A stretch of DNA of 64,000 nt from assembly GCA_031459855.1 (NCBI GenBank), contig JAVKHP010000001.1, positions 1,993,078 to 2,057,077 of the forward strand. The letters are read 5' to 3'. Positions 14,745 through 48,852 of the stretch are shown here, piece after piece (positions within the stretch are counted from its first letter, which is position 1; the number at the start of each line of letters is the position of its first letter). The notes below the pieces were generated by a model that ran no database searches, was not told the DNA's origin, and was given only the letters and a program-made list of their open reading frames with translations. This DNA is from Candidatus Fervidifonticultor primus. Its GTDB lineage: Bacteria > Sysuimicrobiota > Sysuimicrobiia > Sysuimicrobiales > Humicultoraceae. Made by a program: the position numbers and the translations under genes.

Positions 14745-16259
14745 TCAGCCCGAGGCCGATGCCGGGACCGCATGCGGCCGTGCAGCGACCTCGGCGAAGT
14801 GACGGGCCTCGAGGGCGGCCGCCGCGGGTGGAGGGTCGCCAAAGCGCAGGTGAGCGACCAGCCCCGGGTGCACCGCCCGGACGGCCTCGTAGAGCTGGAG
14901 GGCGATGCGCCGGTAGGAGAAGTGCCCGCTCTCCCGTGCCCGCAGCGGCACCACGCTGTAGAGCTCGCGCAGGTTCATGGTGGCCAGGAACCGGCGGTTG
15001 TGGGCGTTGGTGACCAGGTAGGCGGCCTCGTGCGGCAGGTCGGCGGCGAGGCGGTGGTAGGCCTCCGTGGCCTGCTCGACCGCGGCGCGGAATGCGCCCT
15101 CCAGGCCGGCCTCGACGATGGCGCGGGGCACCGCGTAGCCCAGGTCCACCGTGGGGGCCTGGGGGCTCTGGGTCATCATGCGGTGACGCTTGAGGTCGAA
15201 GTAGGCGCCCTGGTCGCAGACGATGTCGAAGGTGTAGGTGACGTGCTCGAGCTCGCGTAGCGGCGCATCGTGGCGCCGGAGCCGCCCCAGCGCCTCACAG
15301 ACGATGGCTGCGCGCCCATGCGGGTCAAGCGCGGCCGCCCGCGCCCAGGCCCGGCGGTACGACGTCCGGCCGTAGCGATACAAGCATGCGGCCACGATGC
15401 GCAGTTCCGCATCCCGGTCGTAGTGCACCAGGCGAACCCCGGGCGACGCCTCGCCGTCCAGGAGGTCGGCCTCCGCCGGCTCGTCCTCGCCCCTGGCCAG
15501 GGCGGTCAGGGCCGCGGCCGTCTCGATCAGGTAGGGGCTGGGCTCGGCGTACTTGACGAGGGTGGGCACCTCGGTGCGGGCCACGGCCTTGACCTCGGCG
15601 CCGATGGCCCGGACCTCTTCGAGGGGGTGCGACAGCATCTTGGTGATGGCATGCTCGAGGGCGCGGGCGTTGGCCGTCATGCCCACGTTGGCGAGCGTGG
15701 CGCAGGGCAGGAGGAAGCGGCAGACGTCGATGTACCTGGAGCGGATCCGCGCGGCATACGCCCGGTCGGCCTCCCCCTCGTGGCGCGGGTACCACGTCTC
15801 GATGACGCGCCGCACGGGCTCGAGGCTGGCCCGGTACGTCTCGAACAGGCGCCGGCAGGTCTGCACGTAGAGCTCGGCGTGCGGGGAGGCGGCGACCGTC
15901 GGCGGGACGTAGAAGGCGTCGAAGATCTGGTAGCGGGTGGACTTCTCGGTGTACGAGCAGAGACGGTTGCTCTCCAGGCACTCGATGGCCAGGCGCGACA
16001 CGTTCTCCAGCGCCAGGTGGAGGACGGCGTGCTCGGCCACCGAGCCGTGCCCGTACCCCAGCACCCACTTCTCGTGGAACTCGCTGGACGACTCCTCCGT
16101 CAGTTCCGCCGCGATCTCCCGAAAGGGCTTGGGGCTACGGGAGGTCTTGGCGAAGGCGACGGCGATGACCTCGGGGGGAAGGAGCCTGGGGCTAAGGAGG
16201 TAGATGTCGCGGCGGCGCAGCGATGGAGTACCGTCGATCGAGGCGAACTGTGGTAGCAT
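14745..16259 (-). CDS. ThyX-like (flavin-dependent thymidylate synthase family) protein with two Thy1-like halves
   Basis: N-terminal half GHGSVAEH...VSRL...ESNRLCSYTEKSTRY mirrors the ThyX signature but with SNR in place of RHR; second half contains ...DLKRHRMMTQSPQ.... 504 aa, about twice ThyX length. Confidence 0.5.
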   Translation of the reverse strand: MLPQFASIDGTPSLRRRDIYLLSPRLLPPEVIAVAFAKTSRSPKPFREIAAELTEESSSEFHEKWVLGYGHGSVAEHAVLHLALENVSRLAIECLESNRLCSYTEKSTRYQIFDAFYVPPTVAASPHAELYVQTCRRLFETYRASLEPVRRVIETWYPRHEGEADRAYAARIRSRYIDVCRFLLPCATLANVGMTANARALEHAITKMLSHPLEEVRAIGAEVKAVARTEVPTLVKYAEPSPYLIETAAALTALARGEDEPAEADLLDGEASPGVRLVHYDRDAELRIVAACLYRYGRTSYRRAWARAAALDPHGRAAIVCEALGRLRRHDAPLRELEHVTYTFDIVCDQGAYFDLKRHRMMTQSPQAPTVDLGYAVPRAIVEAGLEGAFRAAVEQATEAYHRLAADLPHEAAYLVTNAHNRRFLATMNLRELYSVVPLRARESGHFSYRRIALQLYEAVRAVHPGLVAHLRFGDPPPAAAALEARHFAEVAARPHAVPASASG

Positions 16260-16423
16260 GGCCTTCCCCCCGGGGTCGCCGCCTCATATTCCACGTCCGA
16301 TCGGGTTTTCCTTCTAGATCTAGTGCGAAGAGCCAAAATTCCCTCAAGATTTTGTAGGCGGCCCCTGGCCGGGAGTCTTCTGCCCTGGCAGGAGTCCCGA
16401 GGCCAGACGGCCAACACGCAGAC

Positions 16424-17029
16424 GTGAGCCTGCTGGCCCGACTGCGGGAGCAGCTGCGGGAGTACCGTCCGCGTGACCTGCCGCCCCATTCGTGGCGCCG
16501 GGCGGCGGTGCTCGTCCCGGTGTTCGAGCAGGACGGGGTGGCACACCTGCTCCTCACCAAGCGGACGGAGACCGTCGAGCACCACAAGGGGCAGATCTCC
16601 TTCCCCGGGGGCGGCGAGGAGCCGGGAGACGCCTCGCTCCAGGAGACCGCGCTCCGGGAGACGTACGAGGAGCTCGGGTTGGAGCCGTCGGCCGTGGAGG
16701 TGCTCGGGCGCCTGGACGAGGTCGAGACGATCGTGTCGGGGTTCGCGGTCACCCCCTTCGTGGGTGCCGTGCCGCCGCCGGATCGCCTGCGGCCCAATCC
16801 GAACGAGATCGACGAGGTCGTGACCCTGCCCCTGGCGATCTTCCAGGACCCGGGGCGGGTGCGCGCAGAGCGCGTGGTGCGTGGGGGCCGGGTGGTGGAG
16901 CTGCTCTACTACGACTGCGGCCGCTGGACCGTGTGGGGGCTCACGGCGCGGATCATCCGGAACCTGCTGGACGTGGTGGAGGGAAAGGTCCCGGAGGCGC
17001 CCGAGCCGCCCGCGGCCAACGAGCCGTGA
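16424..17029 (+). CDS. NUDIX hydrolase, CoA pyrophosphatase (NudL-like)
   Basis: ...LLLTKRTETVEHHKGQISFPGGG... CoA-pyrophosphatase motif plus Nudix box ...ETALRETYEELGL...; GTG start. Confidence 0.85.
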   Translation: MSLLARLREQLREYRPRDLPPHSWRRAAVLVPVFEQDGVAHLLLTKRTETVEHHKGQISFPGGGEEPGDASLQETALRETYEELGLEPSAVEVLGRLDEVETIVSGFAVTPFVGAVPPPDRLRPNPNEIDEVVTLPLAIFQDPGRVRAERVVRGGRVVELLYYDCGRWTVWGLTARIIRNLLDVVEGKVPEAPEPPAANEP

Positions 17030-37139: not shown

Positions 37140-37201
37140 GCGGTGACAGCCGCATAGTGGTGGCGATGGAGCTCGCCAAGCGCCCGGGCGTGCGGGCTGA
37201 T

Positions 37202-37240
37202 AGCTCCTACTGACCGGCAGGTCGGTAGGAGCTTTTTGAT
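37202..37240 (+). terminator. Rho-independent terminator downstream of the FAD-oxidase gene
   Basis: AGCTCCTAC-T-GACC [GGCA] GGTC-G-GTAGGAGCT giving a 14-bp stem (one U-G wobble) followed by TTTTT. Confidence 0.7.
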
Positions 37241-41638: not shown

Positions 41639-42077
41639 GGGTACGCTCCTGTGGGGTAGCGGCACGCGACGGGCGGCCCCTACCCGCGGAATGTGGGTAG
41701 GAGCCATCAGCCCGAAGAGGGCGGTTCAGGCGGGCCCCATCGCCTGGGCTGGATTATAGGTGCTCCCGGGAGAGTGCGTCCAGTCCTCCTGGCCGCAGAG
41801 GCCATCCTCGTCGCAGGGGTCACCGGCATCCGGCCGTACCAGGCCCCGCGGCGACCGTAGCGGCGCATCACCCGCGCCACACCAGGTTGTTACCCAGGGC
41901 TGCAGAGCCGCTGGCAGTAGACTCTGCGCACCTCTCGCGTCCGTATTCGGGATGCTGCGGCGCGCGCATGACGCGGAAAGCGCTCTGGGGGAGAGGCGGT
42001 GTGCATCTTCTGGCCCGGGGGAGATGGCCCTGACCTTACGCCATCAAGTTAGATGGCGGATGGCGCGATTCGCGCGG

Positions 42078-42107
42078 TAGCCAGGGCTGTCCGTTGCCAC
42101 GTATAAT
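42078..42107 (+). promoter_or_regulatory. Candidate promoter for the sugar ABC operon
   Basis: TATAAT at about 42102-42107 with a weak -35-like TAGCCA 18 bp upstream; about 75 bp before the binding-protein start. Confidence 0.25.
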
Positions 42108-42182
42108 TCACTATAGGAACATGGAGTCCGCATTGTGGACAGATGCAGAGGTTGCCGAGCCCGATACCGGGAGGTGAGCAGG

Positions 42183-43490
42183 ATGCGTAGGCAGGGACTG
42201 AGTGATTTCGCCCGGATCCTAACGGTCCTCGTAGTCGGCATCGTAGTTGGCTCCTCCCCCGCCTGGTCCGCAGAAGTCGTCACGTTGCGATTCTCCAACT
42301 GGCACCTGGTGGAGACCGTCTGGGGGCGCTCTCTGCGCGAGGCGATTGCGATCTTCGAGAGTCAGAACCCTGGCATCCGGATCGTTCCCGAGCCGATTTC
42401 CTACGCGGAGAAAGAACCGCGTTACCAGGCCGAGTGCGCCGCCCGACGTATGCCCGACGTGGTGAAGTTGCACAACTTCTCGCTGACCATGTTCTTCGAA
42501 CTGGGCTGCGCCGCCGACCTCACGCCCTTCGTGCAGCGCGAGGGGCCGGACTTCCTCAGGACCTGGTACGAAACGCCGATCAAGACCCTGACCTACAAGG
42601 GCAGACTCCTGGCGATGCCAGGGGACTTCATGTCGATGGTCCTGATCTACAACCGGGAACTGTTCCGGGCCGCGGGGCTGGATCCCAACAGGCCTCCGCG
42701 GAACTGGACTGAGTTCCTCGACTACGCGAAGCGGCTTACCCGCGACACCGACGGTGACGGCCGGACCGACCAGTGGGGCTTCAGCATGCCGGCGTCCAAG
42801 AACCCCGGTTTGCCGCTACGCATTGCACCAATCGTTTGGAGCTTTGGCGCCGACTTCCTGACGCCTGACGGCCGGCGCTCGGCCATGGACACACGCGAGT
42901 TTCGAGAAGCTTTCTCCTACATTGTCGACTTGGCGACGGCACACCGTGTGGTCCCGCCAGGGGTCACCACCTTTGGCCCCGGCGACGTGCGCACGCAGAT
43001 GGCGCATCGGCGGGTGGCGATGAAGATCGGGTCGGGCTGGTCGTACCCCATCATCAACGACATCAACCCGGCCCTGAAGGCCTACGAGACGCTGGAGGCT
43101 GCGCCCGTACCCGTCGGGCGCAAGCAGGTCACCATGGCGTGGCTTTCGGGGTGGATCATGAGTCCGCACACCCGGTACCCCGAGGCCGCGTGGAAGTTCA
43201 TCAAGTTCCTCACCAGCAAGGAGACCGAGAAGAAGTTTTTCTTCGACAACCGGGTGATTTCGTCGCGCAAGGACGTCAACACGTTGCCCATGGTCCAAAC
43301 CGACAAGTTCTCGAAGGTGATTGTGTCACAGCTCCAGTACGCGAGACTCGAGCCGCTCATCCCGGAGTGGCCCGAGATCTTCGACACCTTCGCCACCGCG
43401 CTGCAGGAGGCGATCACCGGGGCGAAAGCTCCTGATCGGGCCCTTGCCGAGGCCCACGCGAGGGTCAATACGATCCTGGGGGTGCGGTGA
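42183..43490 (+). CDS. Sugar ABC transporter substrate-binding protein (family 1)
   Basis: Signal peptide, 436 aa, family-1 carbohydrate-binding pattern; GGGAGGTGA upstream of ATG; GC3 visibly lower than neighbouring genes. Confidence 0.9.
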   Translation: MRRQGLSDFARILTVLVVGIVVGSSPAWSAEVVTLRFSNWHLVETVWGRSLREAIAIFESQNPGIRIVPEPISYAEKEPRYQAECAARRMPDVVKLHNFSLTMFFELGCAADLTPFVQREGPDFLRTWYETPIKTLTYKGRLLAMPGDFMSMVLIYNRELFRAAGLDPNRPPRNWTEFLDYAKRLTRDTDGDGRTDQWGFSMPASKNPGLPLRIAPIVWSFGADFLTPDGRRSAMDTREFREAFSYIVDLATAHRVVPPGVTTFGPGDVRTQMAHRRVAMKIGSGWSYPIINDINPALKAYETLEAAPVPVGRKQVTMAWLSGWIMSPHTRYPEAAWKFIKFLTSKETEKKFFFDNRVISSRKDVNTLPMVQTDKFSKVIVSQLQYARLEPLIPEWPEIFDTFATALQEAITGAKAPDRALAEAHARVNTILGVR

Positions 43491-44413
43491 ACATCGTGAG
43501 AGGCCGGCCCGCGCCGGCCTCTCACGGCTTCAGAGCTCGCGGGCGCGCCGCGTGCCTGCCGCGGCTGCGCGACGCGCACCTCGGGTACGTCTTCATCGCC
43601 CCGACGCTCCTGCTACTGGGTGTGGTCCTGGCGTACCCCGCCTACGAGAGCGTGCGCCTGAGCCTCAGCCCGCGTGGAGGCGGGGGAGTCACCCTCGTCC
43701 AGTACGTGGGGCTGGTGCAGTCCGACCTCTTCCGGCAGGTGGTCTGGCAAACGGCGGTCTTCGTGACGGCCAGCGTGACGGCGCACGTTGTGCTGGGGCT
43801 TGCCGTGGCCCTGGTGCTCAACCGGCCGCTGTGGGGACGGACGGGCTTCAGGATCCTGGCCTTGTTACCGTGGGTGGTCCCTGATGTCGTAGCCGGGATC
43901 ATCTGGAAGTGGATTCTAAACCCCCTGTACGGGGTGCTCAACGACGCCCTGGCCCGGTTGGGACTGATTGCGCACCCGGTGGAGTGGCTGACCAATCCGT
44001 CGCTGGTCTTGTTCAGCGTGATCCTGGCCAACGTCTGGCGAGGCTTCCCCTTCGTCATGATCATTTTCCTGGCGGGCCTGCAGAGCATCCCGACCGAACT
44101 GTACGAAGCCGCGGCCATCGACGGGGCGGGGACCCTCCAGCGCTTTCGGCACGTAACCTTGCCCGGACTGCGCCGGGTCTTCATCGTGGCCCTGGCCCTC
44201 GACACCATCTGGGAGACGCGCCGGTTCGGTCTCGTCCAGGCAATGACCGGTGGCGGCCCGGGCACCCTCAGTGAGGTCCTCTCGACCCAGGTGTTCAAGC
44301 AGTACTTCCAGTTCTTCAAGTTCGAGTTCGCGTCGGCGATGGCCATCGCGATGACGGGACTGCTGCTGTTCGTGTCAATTCCGTACGTGCGGATGATCGT
44401 TCGAGAGGAGTAG
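43487..44413 (+). CDS. Sugar ABC transporter permease (MalF/UgpA-like)
   Basis: ...EAAAIDGAGTLQRFRHVTLPGL... EAA-loop region; start overlaps binding-protein stop. Confidence 0.9.
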   Translation: MNIVRGRPAPASHGFRARGRAACLPRLRDAHLGYVFIAPTLLLLGVVLAYPAYESVRLSLSPRGGGGVTLVQYVGLVQSDLFRQVVWQTAVFVTASVTAHVVLGLAVALVLNRPLWGRTGFRILALLPWVVPDVVAGIIWKWILNPLYGVLNDALARLGLIAHPVEWLTNPSLVLFSVILANVWRGFPFVMIIFLAGLQSIPTELYEAAAIDGAGTLQRFRHVTLPGLRRVFIVALALDTIWETRRFGLVQAMTGGGPGTLSEVLSTQVFKQYFQFFKFEFASAMAIAMTGLLLFVSIPYVRMIVREE

Positions 44414-44420
44414 CCTGCCC

Positions 44421-45269
44421 GTGGACCTGCCAGCCATCTACAGCCGCTCGCGTCTCGTCTTGGCCTTGGTGTACGTCTTCGCGGGACTCGTGGGCATCTT
44501 AGTCTTCTTCCCTTTCGTGTGGATGGTGCTGACCTCGCTCAAGACGGAGACCGAGGCCTTGCGGATTCCGGTGGTGTGGCTGCCGGACCGCCCCACCCTG
44601 GCTGCCTACGTCACCATGTGGTTGCGAAAGAACTACGCGACGTACTTCTTCAACAGCGCAGTAGTGTCGTTGACCACAGCGGTGATCTCGACACTGTTGG
44701 GCGCCATGGCCGGCTACGGGTTCTCGCGCTTCGCGCTGCGCGGGCGCGGGGTCCTCATGGGGCTGGTGCTCATCAGCCAGATGCTCCCCGGGGTCCTGGT
44801 GGTGGGGCCCTACTTCAAGATCCTCTCGGCCGTTGGTCTCTACGACACCCGCACCGGCCTCATCATCGCATTCCTGACCATCTGCCTGCCCTTTGCCACC
44901 TGGATGCTCAAGGGCTTCATCGACGGTGTGCCGCGGGAACTGGACGAGGCGGCGATGGTCGACGGCTGCAGTCGGTGGCGTATCTTCGTGGGAATCGTCC
45001 TCCCGCTGATCCGTCCGGGCATGGTGGCCACCATGCTCTTTGCGTTTCTGCTGGCATGGGGTGACCTGTTGTGGGTGTCGACTCTCACGCACAGCGAGGG
45101 CATGGTGACCGTCACGCTGGCCATTGCCCGGACGGTCCTCGAGTTCTACGTAAACTGGCCCGAACTGATGGCGGGTGCCCTCATGGGTGGGTTCCCCGGA
45201 ATCGTGTTGTACTTGTTAATGCAGCGGTGGCTGGTCGCCGGACTGACGGCGGGCGCCATCAAACAGTAG
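44421..45269 (+). CDS. Sugar ABC transporter permease (MalG/UgpE-like)
   Basis: ...DEAAMVDGCSRWRIFVGIVLPL... EAA-loop; 282 aa. Confidence 0.9.
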   Translation: MDLPAIYSRSRLVLALVYVFAGLVGILVFFPFVWMVLTSLKTETEALRIPVVWLPDRPTLAAYVTMWLRKNYATYFFNSAVVSLTTAVISTLLGAMAGYGFSRFALRGRGVLMGLVLISQMLPGVLVVGPYFKILSAVGLYDTRTGLIIAFLTICLPFATWMLKGFIDGVPRELDEAAMVDGCSRWRIFVGIVLPLIRPGMVATMLFAFLLAWGDLLWVSTLTHSEGMVTVTLAIARTVLEFYVNWPELMAGALMGGFPGIVLYLLMQRWLVAGLTAGAIKQ

Positions 45270-45279
45270 GAGGCGGTCG

Positions 45280-46350
45280 ATGCGCGGCGTTATGAAGGTG
45301 GGACGCGGCCCCGGCCTCGTAGAACTCCACGAGGTCCCCGACCCGCAGCCGGGGCCGGGCGAAGTGCTGATCGCGGTGGCGGCGGCGGCCATTTGCGGGA
45401 GCGACCTGCACATCTTCCACGATCGTCATCCGTACTGGCCGCCGGTCATCCTCGGCCACGAGTTCGCGGGAACTGTCGCGGCAGTGGGGGAAGGCGTCAG
45501 TGGTTATGCCATCGGGGATCGGGTCGTTTCCGAGACCAGCACAGGGAGCTGCGGCGTGTGTTTCCTGTGCCGCAGCGGCAACAGGCAGATTTGCGAGCAC
45601 AAGCGCGCGCTGGGGATCGGGACGAATGGGGCGTTTGCGCACTACGTGGTTGCGCCTGCCTCGTTGCTCCATCGAGTCCCTGACGGGGTGCCGCTGGAAG
45701 AAGCCGCCCTTACCGAGCCGACGGCCATTGCCGTCCACGCTATCGTTGAGCGCATGAAGGTGGCGCCGGGCGAAACCGTCGTCATCAGCGGCCCCGGGCC
45801 CATTGGCCTGCTGTGCCTGCAGGTGGCCCGGGCGGCAGGCGCCGGTCTGATCGTCGTCAGCGGGACACCCACCAGCGCGCGCCTGCGGTTGCAAGTGGCC
45901 CGGACGGTCGGTGCAGACGTGATCGTCAACATTGGGGAGGAAGACTTGGTCCACCGGGTCCTAGCCCTGACCGACGGTCGCGGGGCCGACGTGGCGGTGG
46001 AAACCTCCGGGGCACCGCAGGCCGTGGAGGCCCTGCCACGCCTGACCAGGCGGCTGGGGCGCATCGGCCTGCTGGGCGTGACCGGACACCCGACGGTACC
46101 GTTCCCTGCCGATGTCGCGCTCTTCAAGGGCCTGGAGGTGCAGTGCTCGTTCAGCAGCAAGCACACCAGCTGGGTGACGGCACTCCGTCTGCTGGCATCC
46201 GGTCAGGTGCGGGTGCGACCGCTTCTGACGACGGCGGTCCCACTGGAACGATGGCAAGAGGCCTTCGAGGCGCAAGAGCAGGGCAGGGCGATCAAGACGT
46301 TGCTGATGCCCTCCCGGTGGCCGCAGAACCTGGCGGAGGGACGAGGATGA
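45280..46350 (+). CDS. Zinc-dependent alcohol/polyol dehydrogenase (MDR family, sorbitol-dehydrogenase-like)
   Basis: ...ICGSDLHIF...GHEFAGTV... catalytic-zinc motif, ...CGVCFLCRSGNRQIC... structural-zinc motif, ...ISGPGPIGL... Rossmann motif. Confidence 0.9.
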   Translation: MRGVMKVGRGPGLVELHEVPDPQPGPGEVLIAVAAAAICGSDLHIFHDRHPYWPPVILGHEFAGTVAAVGEGVSGYAIGDRVVSETSTGSCGVCFLCRSGNRQICEHKRALGIGTNGAFAHYVVAPASLLHRVPDGVPLEEAALTEPTAIAVHAIVERMKVAPGETVVISGPGPIGLLCLQVARAAGAGLIVVSGTPTSARLRLQVARTVGADVIVNIGEEDLVHRVLALTDGRGADVAVETSGAPQAVEALPRLTRRLGRIGLLGVTGHPTVPFPADVALFKGLEVQCSFSSKHTSWVTALRLLASGQVRVRPLLTTAVPLERWQEAFEAQEQGRAIKTLLMPSRWPQNLAEGRG

Positions 46351-47255
46351 GCAGGAGCAGCCGCCGGGACGTGCAGTCTGTCGACCGCGCCATGGTACTC
46401 CTGGCCGCGCTGGGCGAGGCTGGATGTCCACTGGGCGTCCGCGAGCTCAGCGCCCGGGTCATGCTTCCTCGGCCTACCGTCTACCGCCTCCTGCAAACGC
46501 TGGAACACCACGGTGCCGTCACTGCCGCCGACGGACGTTTCATGATCGGGCCTCGCATCCTGTGGCTGGCGGCCCAACGTCTCGAACACATCGAACTGCG
46601 CACCGTCGGACGGCCGTTTCTCCTGGACCTGCGGGACCGGACCGGCGAGACGGTTCACCTGGCCGTCCTGGAGCAGGGTCAGGTCGTCTACGTGGACAAG
46701 GTCGAGCCACCGGGCCCGATGCGCATGGCCTCGGCGGTCGGAAAGATCATGCCGGCACATTGTACGGCGCTGGGCAAGGCCATGCTGGCCCATCTGCCTC
46801 GGGAGCAGGTCCGCGAGGTCCTCGCCCGCCATGGGATGCCGCAGCGCACGCGGCAGACGATCACCAATGCCGACGTGCTGTTGGCGGAACTGGACGCTGT
46901 CCGCGCACGCGGGTATGCCGTTGACAACGTGGAGAACGAAGAGGGTATCCGCTGCGTGGGGGCTGCCATCTTCGACCACCGAGGCGAGGTGGTGGGCGCT
47001 GTCAGCGTGTCTGGAGCCGTCCGCGCCCTGACGCTGGAGCGGATTCGCCGTGACCTCGGCCCATGTGTCCGGGACACGGCAGAGTGGATATCGCGGGCCA
47101 TGGGCTGGCAGACGCCTCGACGATCGGCGACCGCCGAGGGGCGACCGGGGGATCGCCGGACGCAGACCCGCCTGCCGGGACGCATGATCCCGCGGCGTGG
47201 CCAGGCGGCCGTGGTCTCGGGTCGCACGCGTGGGCCGGCGCGCGCCGGAGGCTGA
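46347..47255 (+). CDS. IclR-family transcriptional regulator
   Basis: N-terminal wHTH ...SVDRAMVLLAAL...VRELSARVMLPRPTVYRLLQTL... and IclR effector domain; ATG overlaps ADH stop (ATGA). Confidence 0.85.
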   Translation: MSRSSRRDVQSVDRAMVLLAALGEAGCPLGVRELSARVMLPRPTVYRLLQTLEHHGAVTAADGRFMIGPRILWLAAQRLEHIELRTVGRPFLLDLRDRTGETVHLAVLEQGQVVYVDKVEPPGPMRMASAVGKIMPAHCTALGKAMLAHLPREQVREVLARHGMPQRTRQTITNADVLLAELDAVRARGYAVDNVENEEGIRCVGAAIFDHRGEVVGAVSVSGAVRALTLERIRRDLGPCVRDTAEWISRAMGWQTPRRSATAEGRPGDRRTQTRLPGRMIPRRGQAAVVSGRTRGPARAGG

Positions 47256-47280
47256 CTGCGTTCACCGCACCGGACTCTTC

Positions 47281-47321
47281 CAAGCCCACGGCCGTCGCTT
47301 GCCGCTAGCTGCGGCGAAATG
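47281..47321. repeat. 41-bp repeat copy 2, between IclR gene end and IS fragment
   Basis: About 90% identical to 41351..41391; a mismatch creates the TAG that ends the truncated transposase ORF. Confidence 0.5.
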
Positions 47322-47652
47322 TCTGGCGGGGAAACCGGAGGCCCTCGCGCTCCCAGAGCAACTCGGTGAGGTGATGATCGTTCACGCCCGCATAGGTGGT
47401 GCGGGCCAGGGTGAGGACGCTGACCCGGACAGCCTCGGGGAGGCGCCGCGAGGAGGGGCGGCCGCGGTTGCCATGGACGAGGGCTGCGAGGCCCTGCTGG
47501 CGCAGGCGGGCCAGCAGCCCGCGGAGGTGGCGAAGCGACAGCCCCAACAGCACGGCGGCCTCTGTCGCCCGGAGCACCCCGTGCTGCACCCGGACCAAGA
47601 CCTGGACACGGTGTTGCTCTTTGCGGGTCAAGGCAATCGTCTCCCTAGTCAT
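47305..47652 (-). mobile_element. IS transposase N-terminal HTH fragment (truncated, likely pseudogene)
   Basis: 115-aa ORF ...LTRKEQHRVQVL...EAAVLLGLSLRHLRGLLARLRQQGLAALVHGNRGRPSSRRLP... matches the N-terminal HTH of IS transposases as I remember them; ORF ends after 115 aa inside the repeat, with no catalytic domain. Confidence 0.55.
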
Positions 47653-47781
47653 GCCCTCAGGGTGACAGATTCACTGAGCCGTTAGGGGGTGACAAAATCA
47701 ATGAGCTATTACACACCCGCGCACAGGGGTTGACGCCCACGTCAGGCTGTGCTAGTTTGACACTCAAACTGCATAGGCGTG

Positions 47782-47886
47782 CTCTTATCAAGAGTGGGTG
47801 AGGGACGGGCCCGATGACCCCCGGCAACCTGCCGCCGCCGCGGTAAGGTGCCAAGCCCCGCGGAACCCAGTTCCGGCGGATAAGAG
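47782..47886 (+). promoter_or_regulatory. SAM-I (S-box) riboswitch aptamer
   Basis: CTCTTATCAAGAG..GGGTGAGGGAC.GGCCCGATGA..CCCGGCAACC...GGTGCCAA..CCCGCGGAA...GGATAAGAG: P1 pairing and conserved S-box core elements; candidate promoter TTGACG-17-TAGTTT at about 47730-47758. Confidence 0.8.
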
Positions 47887-47891
47887 GGTGG

Positions 47892-47930
47892 AACCCCTCC
47901 AAGCGCAGGAAGTGGAGGGGTTTCTTGTTA
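47892..47930 (+). terminator. Riboswitch expression-platform terminator
   Basis: AACCCCTCCA / TGGAGGGGTT 10-bp stem with 11-nt loop followed by T-rich TCTTGTT, ending just before the thrB-like GTG at 47932. Confidence 0.7.
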
Positions 47931-47931
47931 C

Positions 47932-48852
47932 GTGTGGCAGCGGGAGATGGGCGTGGCGGTTGCGCTGGAACGGGTCACGGTGCACGTGCCGGCGACGGTG
48001 GCGAACCTCGGGCCGGGCTTCGATTGCCTGGGCGCGGCGGTGAACCTGTTCGCCGAGGTCACCCTGGCGCCGGCGTCGACGCCGCGCGTCGAGGTGGCCG
48101 GCGTCGACGTGCCGCAGGACGCCACGAACCTGATCTACCGTAGCGCCCAGGCGGCAGCGGCGGCGGCGGGCTGGCAGGGGGCGTTCGCGCTGCGCGCGCG
48201 CTGGCCGATCCCGCTGCGCAGCGGCTTGGGCAGCAGCGCGGCAGCCATCGTCGGCGGGCTCGTGGCGGCGCACCGGCTGCTGGGCGACGCCCTGGACGCC
48301 CAGACGCTGCTGCGGCTGGCCACCGACCTCGAAGGCCACCCGGACAACGTGGCGGCAGCGCTGTTCGGCGGCGTGGTGGTCGTGGCACGTGACGGATCGG
48401 AGGTGCGGTGGGCGCGCATCGCGCCGGTGCTGCCGCTGGCCGTGGTGCTGGCGGTGCCCGCCCTCGAGATCGAGACCGCCGCAGCGCGGCGGGTGCTGCC
48501 AGCACAGGTCGCGCACGCCGACGCGGTGTTCAACGTGGCGCGCACGGCGCTGGTGGTGACGGCGCTGGCCACCGGGCAGGCGCAGGCCCTGCGGGGCGCC
48601 CTGCGCGACCGGCTGCACCAGCCGTACCGCGCGCCGCTGGTGCCGGGGTTCGCCGCAGTGGTCGCCGCGGCGGAAGACGCAGGCGCCTACGGTGCGGTGC
48701 TCAGCGGCTCGGGGCCTACGGTGGCGGCCCTGACGCCCCCCGCAGCGGCGGGCGCGGTGGGCGCGGCCATGGTGGCGGCGTTCGCGGCAGCCGGCGTGCA
48801 GAGCCGCGCGCTCGAGACGCAGATCGAGTTGCGGGGGGCGCTGGGGGGCTAG
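47932..48852 (+). CDS. thrB: Homoserine kinase (GHMP kinase); possibly MetM-type in a methionine pathway
   Basis: ...VPATVANLGPGFDCLGAAV... and GHMP motif ...RSGLGSSAAAIVGG...; 306 aa. Confidence 0.85.
   Translation: MWQREMGVAVALERVTVHVPATVANLGPGFDCLGAAVNLFAEVTLAPASTPRVEVAGVDVPQDATNLIYRSAQAAAAAAGWQGAFALRARWPIPLRSGLGSSAAAIVGGLVAAHRLLGDALDAQTLLRLATDLEGHPDNVAAALFGGVVVVARDGSEVRWARIAPVLPLAVVLAVPALEIETAAARRVLPAQVAHADAVFNVARTALVVTALATGQAQALRGALRDRLHQPYRAPLVPGFAAVVAAAEDAGAYGAVLSGSGPTVAALTPPAAAGAVGAAMVAAFAAAGVQSRALETQIELRGALGG

Follow-up and report, generated by a model that had tools for sequence, protein, structure and literature searches.

What does a gene encode whose product is twice as long as the flavin-dependent thymidylate synthase ThyX and departs from the ThyX signature in each of its halves? 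The question arises at positions 14745 to 16259 of a 64,000-nucleotide stretch of the genome of the bacterium Candidatus Fervidifonticultor primus (contig JAVKHP010000001.1), a stretch referred to here in its entirety as the window. A first-pass annotation of the sequence had described two Thy1-like halves, the first with SNR-x7-S-x-RY where ThyX has RHR-x7-S-x-RY and the second with RHR but lacking the following Ser, and had proposed either a ThyX pseudo-dimer that has a single composite active site or a family member with a different function. We conclude that the protein is probably a working flavin-dependent thymidylate synthase made of two fused and diverged ThyX domains, which would act as a dimer with two composite active sites; the assignment as a thymidylate synthase is firmer than the inferred geometry. 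The reaction would be that of ThyX, in which deoxyuridine monophosphate (dUMP), methylenetetrahydrofolate and NAD(P)H yield deoxythymidine monophosphate (dTMP). The coordinates of all mapped features are collected in Table 1.

The gene is a single unbroken open reading frame (ORF) on the minus strand, from an ATG at 16259 to its end at 14745, with a product of 504 amino acids (aa). Matched against the Pfam Thy1 profile (PF02511; 191 positions, cutoff 24.8 bits), the whole protein scores 171 bits in two separate stretches, and each half is also recognized alone, the N-half with 105 bits (aa 29-233, profile 9-191) and the C-half with 76 bits (aa 276-465, profile 1-190). Both halves can be aligned to Thermotoga maritima ThyX by hhalign (E=1e-6 and E=4e-4, respectively). 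The two Thy1-like halves read in the first pass are thus borne out by separate domain matches, with neither a lone Thy1 domain nor a frameshift dividing two genes. Compared directly with each other, the halves gave nothing significant by BLASTP and no better than E=0.025, across a portion of the domain, by hhalign, indicating that the duplication or fusion is ancient; a recent tandem duplication is ruled out on the same grounds. No second thyX and no thyA was detected in the window by tblastn.

Could the double gene be an artefact, either a decaying pseudogene or two adjacent thyX genes run together by faulty sequencing or assembly? In one related metagenomic contig (L107) the gene is indeed split into ORFs of 267 aa and 166 aa, but it sits there among the customary TruB-RibF neighbours and appears to be frameshifted in this contig alone. 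The ORF runs uninterrupted here and in over 5,000 homologues of 450-550 aa, which come from independent sources of differing GC content and which a word-indexed search retrieved as single ORFs spanning both halves; in the family, conservation is strong and position-specific. We regard the probability of an artefact as negligible. Of two candidates for natural, unfused pairs of N-like and C-like genes, one proved to be a tandem gene with a frameshift and the other a fragment of a contig.

The AlphaFold2 model of the 504-aa protein, computed from an input alignment of 49 sequences, has a mean predicted local distance difference test (pLDDT) score of 86.6 and a predicted template modelling score (pTM) of 0.87, with low confidence in the inter-domain linker (pLDDT <50 at aa 267-271) and, within the N-half, around H71 and in the loop. 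In this model the ThyX fold is present in both domains. Foldseek matched it to the ThyX structures 1O26, 2GQ2 and 3GWC with a probability of 1.00 and target-normalised template modelling (TM) scores of 0.66-0.73, each over one domain, and all matches in the PDB were single-domain chains of ThyX or of the methylase PolB, with query-normalised TM scores of ~0.3. Neither Foldseek nor a sequence search found a PDB chain covering both ThyX halves, and since every match spans one domain, no tandem ThyX structure has been solved.

Residues were mapped by profile alignment (hhalign) onto T. maritima ThyX, the sequence of which was verified against 1KQ4/1O26, and conservation was counted over 388 full-length family members that are 26-93% identical. 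In neither half of the 504-aa protein is the signature RHR-x7-S(-x-RY) present within one domain, and the motifs are exactly those of the first reading: S97-N98-R99-LCSYTEK-S107-T-R109-Y110 in the N-half, which has lost the first two residues of RHR and retains an intact dUMP-binding active-site loop, and R358-H359-R360 in the C-half, followed by MMTQSPQA, with Ala rather than Ser at the +8 position. Across the family, the loop residues E105, S107 and R109 (T. maritima E86, S88 and R90) are found in the N-half of all 388 members and Y110 (Y91) in 381 of them, with no equivalents in the shortened loop of the C-half, which has a fixed spacing of 13 residues between R360 and G374 in 381 members. 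At the position of R78, the N-half has Asp or Ser (residue 97) and never Arg, and the C-half has R358 in 387 members; the position of H79 is variable in the N-half (residue 98) and occupied by H359 in 378 C-halves; R80 is retained in both halves (R99 in 382, R360 in 386). The position of H53 is kept as H71 in 368 N-halves but is not conserved in the C-half (H330 in 216), and that of Mycobacterium tuberculosis S71 as S73 in 387 N-halves, with the corresponding C-half residue (332) variable. R147 corresponds to R181 (387) in the N-half and to Y414 (383) in the C-half, and N163 and R165 to N197 and R199 (379 and 381) and to N429 and R431 (353 and 378). The catalytic R174, finally, is matched by R440 in 386 C-halves and by K207 in the N-half, where Lys occurs in 352 members and Arg in 22.

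RHR occurs in none of the 388 N-halves and S-x-R-[YF] in none of the 388 C-half loops, and a composite signature (E, S, R and Y/F in the N-half together with RHR and R440 in the C-half) is complete in 375 members. When the halves are combined, the full set of 12 T. maritima residues that contact FAD (flavin adenine dinucleotide) or dUMP is recovered as H71, R358, H359, R360, E105, S107, R109, Y110, R181, N197, R199 and R440; that these residues converge in space is what we infer from the published roles of the ThyX subunits. To call the motifs degenerate, as the first-pass annotation did, would be misleading, because deviations that are nearly invariant across 388 members represent fixed features under selection.

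In canonical ThyX each active site is assembled from three subunits. In site 1 of the M. tuberculosis enzyme, subunit A provides RHR (residues 95-97) and R199, the equivalent of T. maritima R174, subunit B provides S71 and R190, and subunit C provides R87, Q103, S105, R107 and Y108 (PMC6514825). In the PBCV-1 enzyme, monomer A gives Q75 and R182 and monomer B the S88 loop (PMC3498832), and in that of T. maritima R78 faces N1/C2=O of the flavin, while H53, located on a third monomer, pairs with Y91 (PMC11940539). The activity of T. maritima ThyX is critically dependent on S88 and Y91, and R174 activates dUMP.

The canonical arrangement, in which four identical subunits form four identical sites with three subunits at each, can be cast as three roles: role A comprises RHR and the uracil-activating Arg, role B the Ser and Arg that reach the FAD phosphates together with a His stacked against flavin and folate, and role C the Glu-x-Ser-x-Arg-Tyr loop. 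On this scheme the C-half has kept the role-A set only (R358-H359-R360 and R440), and the N-half has kept the role-C loop (E105, S107, R109, Y110), R181 and the role-B set (H71, S73, N197, R199). The complementary conservation of the two halves thus matches the canonical division of labour among subunits and supports the pseudo-dimeric ThyX with a composite site suggested in the first pass. Two tandem chains would pair to form a pseudo-tetramer in which each chain has one complete site, the other two sites being incomplete for want of residues needed for catalysis. With role A confined to the C-half and role C to the N-half, a dimer of 222 symmetry would have two complete and two incomplete sites, an outcome that would hold whichever twofold axis lies within the chain. 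Because S73 and H71 of role B are strictly specific to the N-half, a complete site composed of a C-half (A), an N-half (B) and the N-half of the partner chain (C) is favoured. Co-loss of residues in viral copies offers a suggestive but mixed clue as to which twofold interface is the intra-chain one. What is observed are the two domains, their complementary conservation and the dTMP-pathway associations of relatives; the dimeric assembly, the interface within one chain, the FAD stoichiometry and the enzyme activity itself are predictions.

An authentic thymidylate synthase could also dispense with a ThyX-like pseudo-tetramer and work as a monomer with one intramolecular site, or as some other oligomer. 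The pTM of 0.87, which predicts two domains tightly packed within one chain, would suit such an enzyme. Canonical sites, however, need three subunits, and the N-half holds both the role-B residues (H71, S73, R199) and the role-C loop, which canonically come from different subunits, so that a lone chain cannot bring the two together in one site. We therefore find this alternative improbable and consider a dimer of tandem chains the most likely working unit. The composite site of the first-pass proposal is supported, with the working unit refined to a probable dimer in which each chain has one complete site.

The incomplete sites, which would be formed by x-x-R99 and K207 of the N-half with N429 and R431 of the C-half, merit separate consideration. 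Although these residues lie outside the complete site, they are conserved (R99 in 382 members, Lys or Arg at 207 in 374, N429 in 353 and R431 in 378), and NADP+ is known to occupy the pocket for FAD in M. tuberculosis ThyX (PMC6514825). On this evidence all four sites might somehow be active, with the incomplete ones binding a dinucleotide (a second FAD, NAD(P)H or an effector) for electron delivery or regulation. In the canonical tetramer, though, the four positions adjoin the adenosine monophosphate end of the neighbouring functional FAD, which may explain their conservation if they merely line that pocket, and several viral copies (L097-L099 and L101; also gp50 of phage Tunturi_5, with N429D and R431A) have lost such residues and kept the composite core. 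Activity at all four sites thus seems very unlikely. Somewhat less remote, but still unlikely, is an obligate asymmetric pseudo-tetramer with two catalytic sites and two that have been repurposed, through R99, K207, N429 and R431, as non-catalytic dinucleotide pockets, which may, for example, dock NAD(P)H or a second flavin for passing electrons on to the catalytic FAD, or serve as an allosteric nucleotide sensor. If true, this would settle, for the tandem family, where NADPH binds in ThyX.

The genomic surroundings of relatives bear on the reaction. In one family member (P0171), found on two independent contigs, thymidylate kinase (Tmk) is fused to the two ThyX domains, and a gene for serine hydroxymethyltransferase (SHMT) follows directly; in another (P0266) the fusion partner is dUTPase. 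Such three-domain proteins would join consecutive steps of the deoxythymidine triphosphate pathway in one polypeptide. On a viral contig (L088), a gene for dCTP deaminase (Dcd) lies directly 3' of tandem thyX, and Tunturi_5, a cultured 309-kb jumbo phage of Tunturiibacter, encodes a dUTPase (gp47), a dCMP deaminase (gp49) and a 518-aa tandem ThyX (gp50) within a short distance of one another. The gene of the FAD synthetase RibF is located directly 5' of tandem thyX at 39 of 72 loci, mostly of Anaerolineae, and within three genes upstream at 45 of the 72; the Anaerolineae loci (L009-L080) have the same-strand block infB-rbfA-DHH phosphoesterase-truB-ribF-tandem thyX. No neighbourhood conserved across phyla was found outside Anaerolineae, and at the other loci tandem thyX resides in housekeeping contexts. 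The relatives with informative fusions or contexts keep the same composite motif pattern as the 504-aa protein. Since the partners produce dUMP, use dTMP, restore the methylene donor or supply the cofactor, these associations support dTMP synthesis, and the 504-aa protein is most likely the thymidylate synthase of the organism.

Several points weigh against this assignment or the proposed architecture. The score against the NCBIfam thyX equivalog TIGR02170 is 81.3 bits, below the cutoff of 87.9 (45-49 bits for each half alone). The neighbours in the window encode an FAH hydrolase, a cupin, a NUDIX protein and a HAD phosphatase, with no link to nucleotide metabolism. At the C-half position aligned with T. 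maritima R74, the protein has F354 (15198-15200); Phe occurs there in 119 of the 388 members and Arg is kept in 223. The published descriptions consulted do not state which subunit donates R147/R172, the geometry of the pseudo-tetramer is deduced from sequence and published descriptions, and we found no measured activity, cofactor content or oligomeric state for any family member.

Some of the same observations would also suit a flavin methylase of the ThyX fold acting on another substrate, be it a PolB-like enzyme of UMP or dUMP, a dCMP-modifying enzyme, a hydroxymethylase or a methylase of uracil in RNA: the subthreshold equivalog score, the absence of RHR-x7-S from each single domain, the uninformative neighbourhood in the window and the presence of PolB (4p5b) among the structural matches to the model. 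Yet the dUMP-contacting residues E105, S107, R109, Y110, R181 and R440 are invariant in the composite form, the dUTPase and Tmk fusions and the SHMT, Dcd and dCMP-deaminase neighbours bracket exactly the step from dUMP to dTMP, and the family is widespread in housekeeping contexts, with no cluster for nucleoside antibiotics or other natural products around the gene in the window or at ~100 related loci. We hence view a substrate other than dUMP for dTMP synthesis as unlikely, and the different function entertained in the first pass is disfavoured by the pathway associations of the relatives.

The 504-aa protein belongs to a very large family, the architecture of which is apparently undescribed in print. 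The best 120 of the more than 5,000 homologues are all 450-520 aa long and belong to Armatimonadota (74-93% identity) or Anaerolineae (~60%), and genomes with tandem homologues range from 26% to 72% GC. A HMMER search of 1.84 billion cluster representatives returned 3,923 matches, including 842 at E<=1e-30, nearly all of them 460-550 aa long and aligned across both halves, which amounts to at least 842 clusters at 50% identity. At least 593 GTDB species genomes carry tandem thyX. Among the matches listed in the GTDB scan, the closest (L001) is from an uncultured metagenome-assembled genome (MAG) and is 98% identical, followed by MAGs of Candidatus Fervidifonticultor (Armatimonadota) and then by Anaerolineae, including Anaerolinea thermophila and Thermoflexus. 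Further carriers are Tectomicrobia, Myxococcota, with the cultured Polyangiales Chondromyces crocatus, Polyangium aurulentum and Minicystis rosea represented by complete genomes, Dependentiae and one Woesearchaeote; presence in the reduced genomes of Dependentiae and Woesearchaeota is as expected of an essential function. IMG/VR contributed 18 viral contigs with full-length tandem copies, several of these contigs being 180-470 kb long. Databases label family members 'FAD-dependent thymidylate synthase'. In the literature searched, ThyX is presented solely as a homotetramer, in reviews as well as in recent papers, and we found no paper on a tandem, fused or two-domain ThyX or on its split active site.

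The 20 representative clusters that were looked up consisted only of MAGs, myxobacteria, Dependentiae and one glaucophyte transcript. This last sequence (P0164, 530 aa), from the MMETSP/EukProt transcriptome of Gloeochaete wittrockiana, may be a gene of the eukaryote itself or derive from contaminating bacteria. Contigs labelled as a Methanosarcinales archaeon (L025) and Bacteroidota (L075) have copies of tandem thyX with 57% and 53% identity to the query; their resemblance to the Anaerolineae copies listed around them suggests mis-binned contigs or recent transfer. The Vibrio jumbo phages vB_VmeM-Yong encode a two-domain homologue, 23% identical and annotated as hypothetical. Five proteins of 600-780 aa (P0131, P0143, P0144, P0255 and P0362) have N-terminal extensions of 150-350 aa in which no Pfam domain was found. 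A seeming viral fusion of 1,009 aa (L090) was dismissed as a spurious upstream extension of the ORF in high-GC DNA.

Table 1. Positions of the tandem thyX gene, its mapped elements and informative loci in relatives (window coordinates unless a contig is named; residue equivalents refer to T. maritima or M. tuberculosis ThyX).
Feature	Position	Strand	Basis
Tandem (two-domain) thyX gene, 504 aa + stop	14745..16259	minus	ORF list, Pfam Thy1, same-length homologues to 93-98% identity
Shine-Dalgarno-like GGGGGAAGG, 2 nt 5' of ATG	16262..16270	minus	read from sequence
N-terminal Thy1 domain, aa 29-233; substrate loop and putative role-B/role-C residues	15561..16175	minus	Pfam, hhalign
H71-G-S73, role-B flavin/folate contacts (T. 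maritima H53 and M. tuberculosis S71 equivalents)	16041..16049	minus	
N-half motif S97 to Y110; first two RHR residues lost	15930..15971	minus	hhalign, sequence
R181, equivalent of T. maritima R147 / M. tuberculosis R172 (dUMP phosphate)	15717..15719	minus	role from docking description
K207, Lys at the N-half position of catalytic R174	15639..15641	minus	hhalign
Acidic inter-domain linker, aa 257-274, GEDEPAEADLLDGEASPG, in frame, no stop codon	15438..15491	minus	sequence, pLDDT
C-terminal Thy1 domain, aa 276-465; RHR and R174 equivalent (putative role A)	14865..15434	minus	Pfam, hhalign
R358-H359-R360, intact RHR flavin-binding motif of the C-half	15180..15188	minus	conservation
C-half loop MMTQSPQAPTVDLG in place of the active-site loop; shorter, no Ser-x-Arg-Tyr	15138..15179	minus	
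R440, equivalent of T. maritima R174 / M. tuberculosis R199 (activates uracil of dUMP)	14940..14942	minus	
Three-domain Tmk/dUTPase-ThyX-ThyX fusions	L081 659-2884; L082 633-2858; L083 813-2924		
Tunturi_5 dUTPase/dCMP deaminase/tandem ThyX region	L109 9406-13494 = PP885688.1 43939-48027		

A few other features of the window were recorded. The NUDIX hydrolase gene (16424-17029, plus strand) is divergent from thyX across a 164-bp spacer and has no evident link to it; judged by its sequence, the product resembles the CoA-pyrophosphatase subtype. No riboswitch or other RNA was detected near the tandem thyX gene at E<=1. Farther away lie an S-adenosylmethionine (SAM) riboswitch (RF00162; 47782-47886, plus strand; 85.7 bits, E=7e-19) and two fluoride riboswitches (RF01734; 41691-41753, minus strand, 56.8 bits, and 37153-37216, plus strand, 37.9 bits), the latter ~4.5 kb apart on opposite strands. 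Between one of the fluoride riboswitches and the SAM riboswitch, the stretch 42001-48000 has a GC content of 0.64-0.68, compared with 0.70-0.77 elsewhere in the window, and may be of foreign origin or atypical in some other way.

The tandem family spans bacteria, DPANN archaea and jumbo phages, and ThyX is pursued as an antibacterial target. A three-subunit active site permanently split between two fused domains amounts to a natural dissection of the subunit contributions: each role can be mutated separately in one gene, which is impossible in a homotetramer, making half-site and asymmetric mechanisms directly testable. Annotation based on the signature (RHR-x7-S) or on the equivalog (TIGR02170) misses or under-scores this major form of the enzyme.

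How does the tandem protein compare with known systems? The ThyX of Chlamydia trachomatis (CT632) is ~529 aa long, which would make it a possible tandem form. This enzyme was reportedly characterised biochemically by Griffin et al. 2005. Chlamydiaceae have thyX and lack thyA, and chlamydial ThyX sequences were too divergent for the original phylogeny (PMC6171736). No chlamydial sequences were among the matches listed in our homologue, cluster and genome searches. If chlamydial ThyX does belong to the tandem family, activity of the tandem form has already been shown and its novelty falls. PolB, the UMP/dUMP methylase of polyoxin biosynthesis (4P5A/4P5B), shares the ThyX fold but has a single domain, and its gene is part of an antibiotic cluster, whereas members of the tandem family are encoded in housekeeping and nucleotide-supply settings. 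Two known ThyX variants, Thy1 of Thermus thermophilus (6J61), which has an additional C-terminal domain, and the 'atypical' ThyX of Corynebacterium glutamicum (3FNN/3GE9), each match one domain of the model; both have a single ThyX domain and neither spans both tandem halves (query-normalised TM ~0.3).

With the canonical homotetrameric enzyme (EC 2.1.1.148; TM0449, 1O26, and Rv2754c, 3GWC), the tandem protein shares the fold in both halves, the catalytic and ligand-binding residues when the halves are taken together and, in its relatives, the pathway context of dUTPase, Tmk, SHMT and Dcd. It differs in that the canonical subunit is a single domain of ~220-250 aa and the tandem chain comprises two diverged domains in 504 aa, and in that four identical sites would be replaced, as predicted from sequence, by two complete ones. 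Monomeric herpesvirus dUTPase arose by duplication and fusion of a subunit of an enzyme with inter-subunit active sites, with complementary loss of motifs and fewer composite sites remaining; the evolutionary route is analogous, but the fold and reaction are unrelated and the parallel is one of analogy only. Related in principle is inter-subunit complementation in ThyX, which Leduc et al. are said to have studied on the homotetramer. The tandem protein apparently has the same principle fixed genetically, and in contrast to the work on the homotetramer, its complementation is natural, intragenic and ancient.

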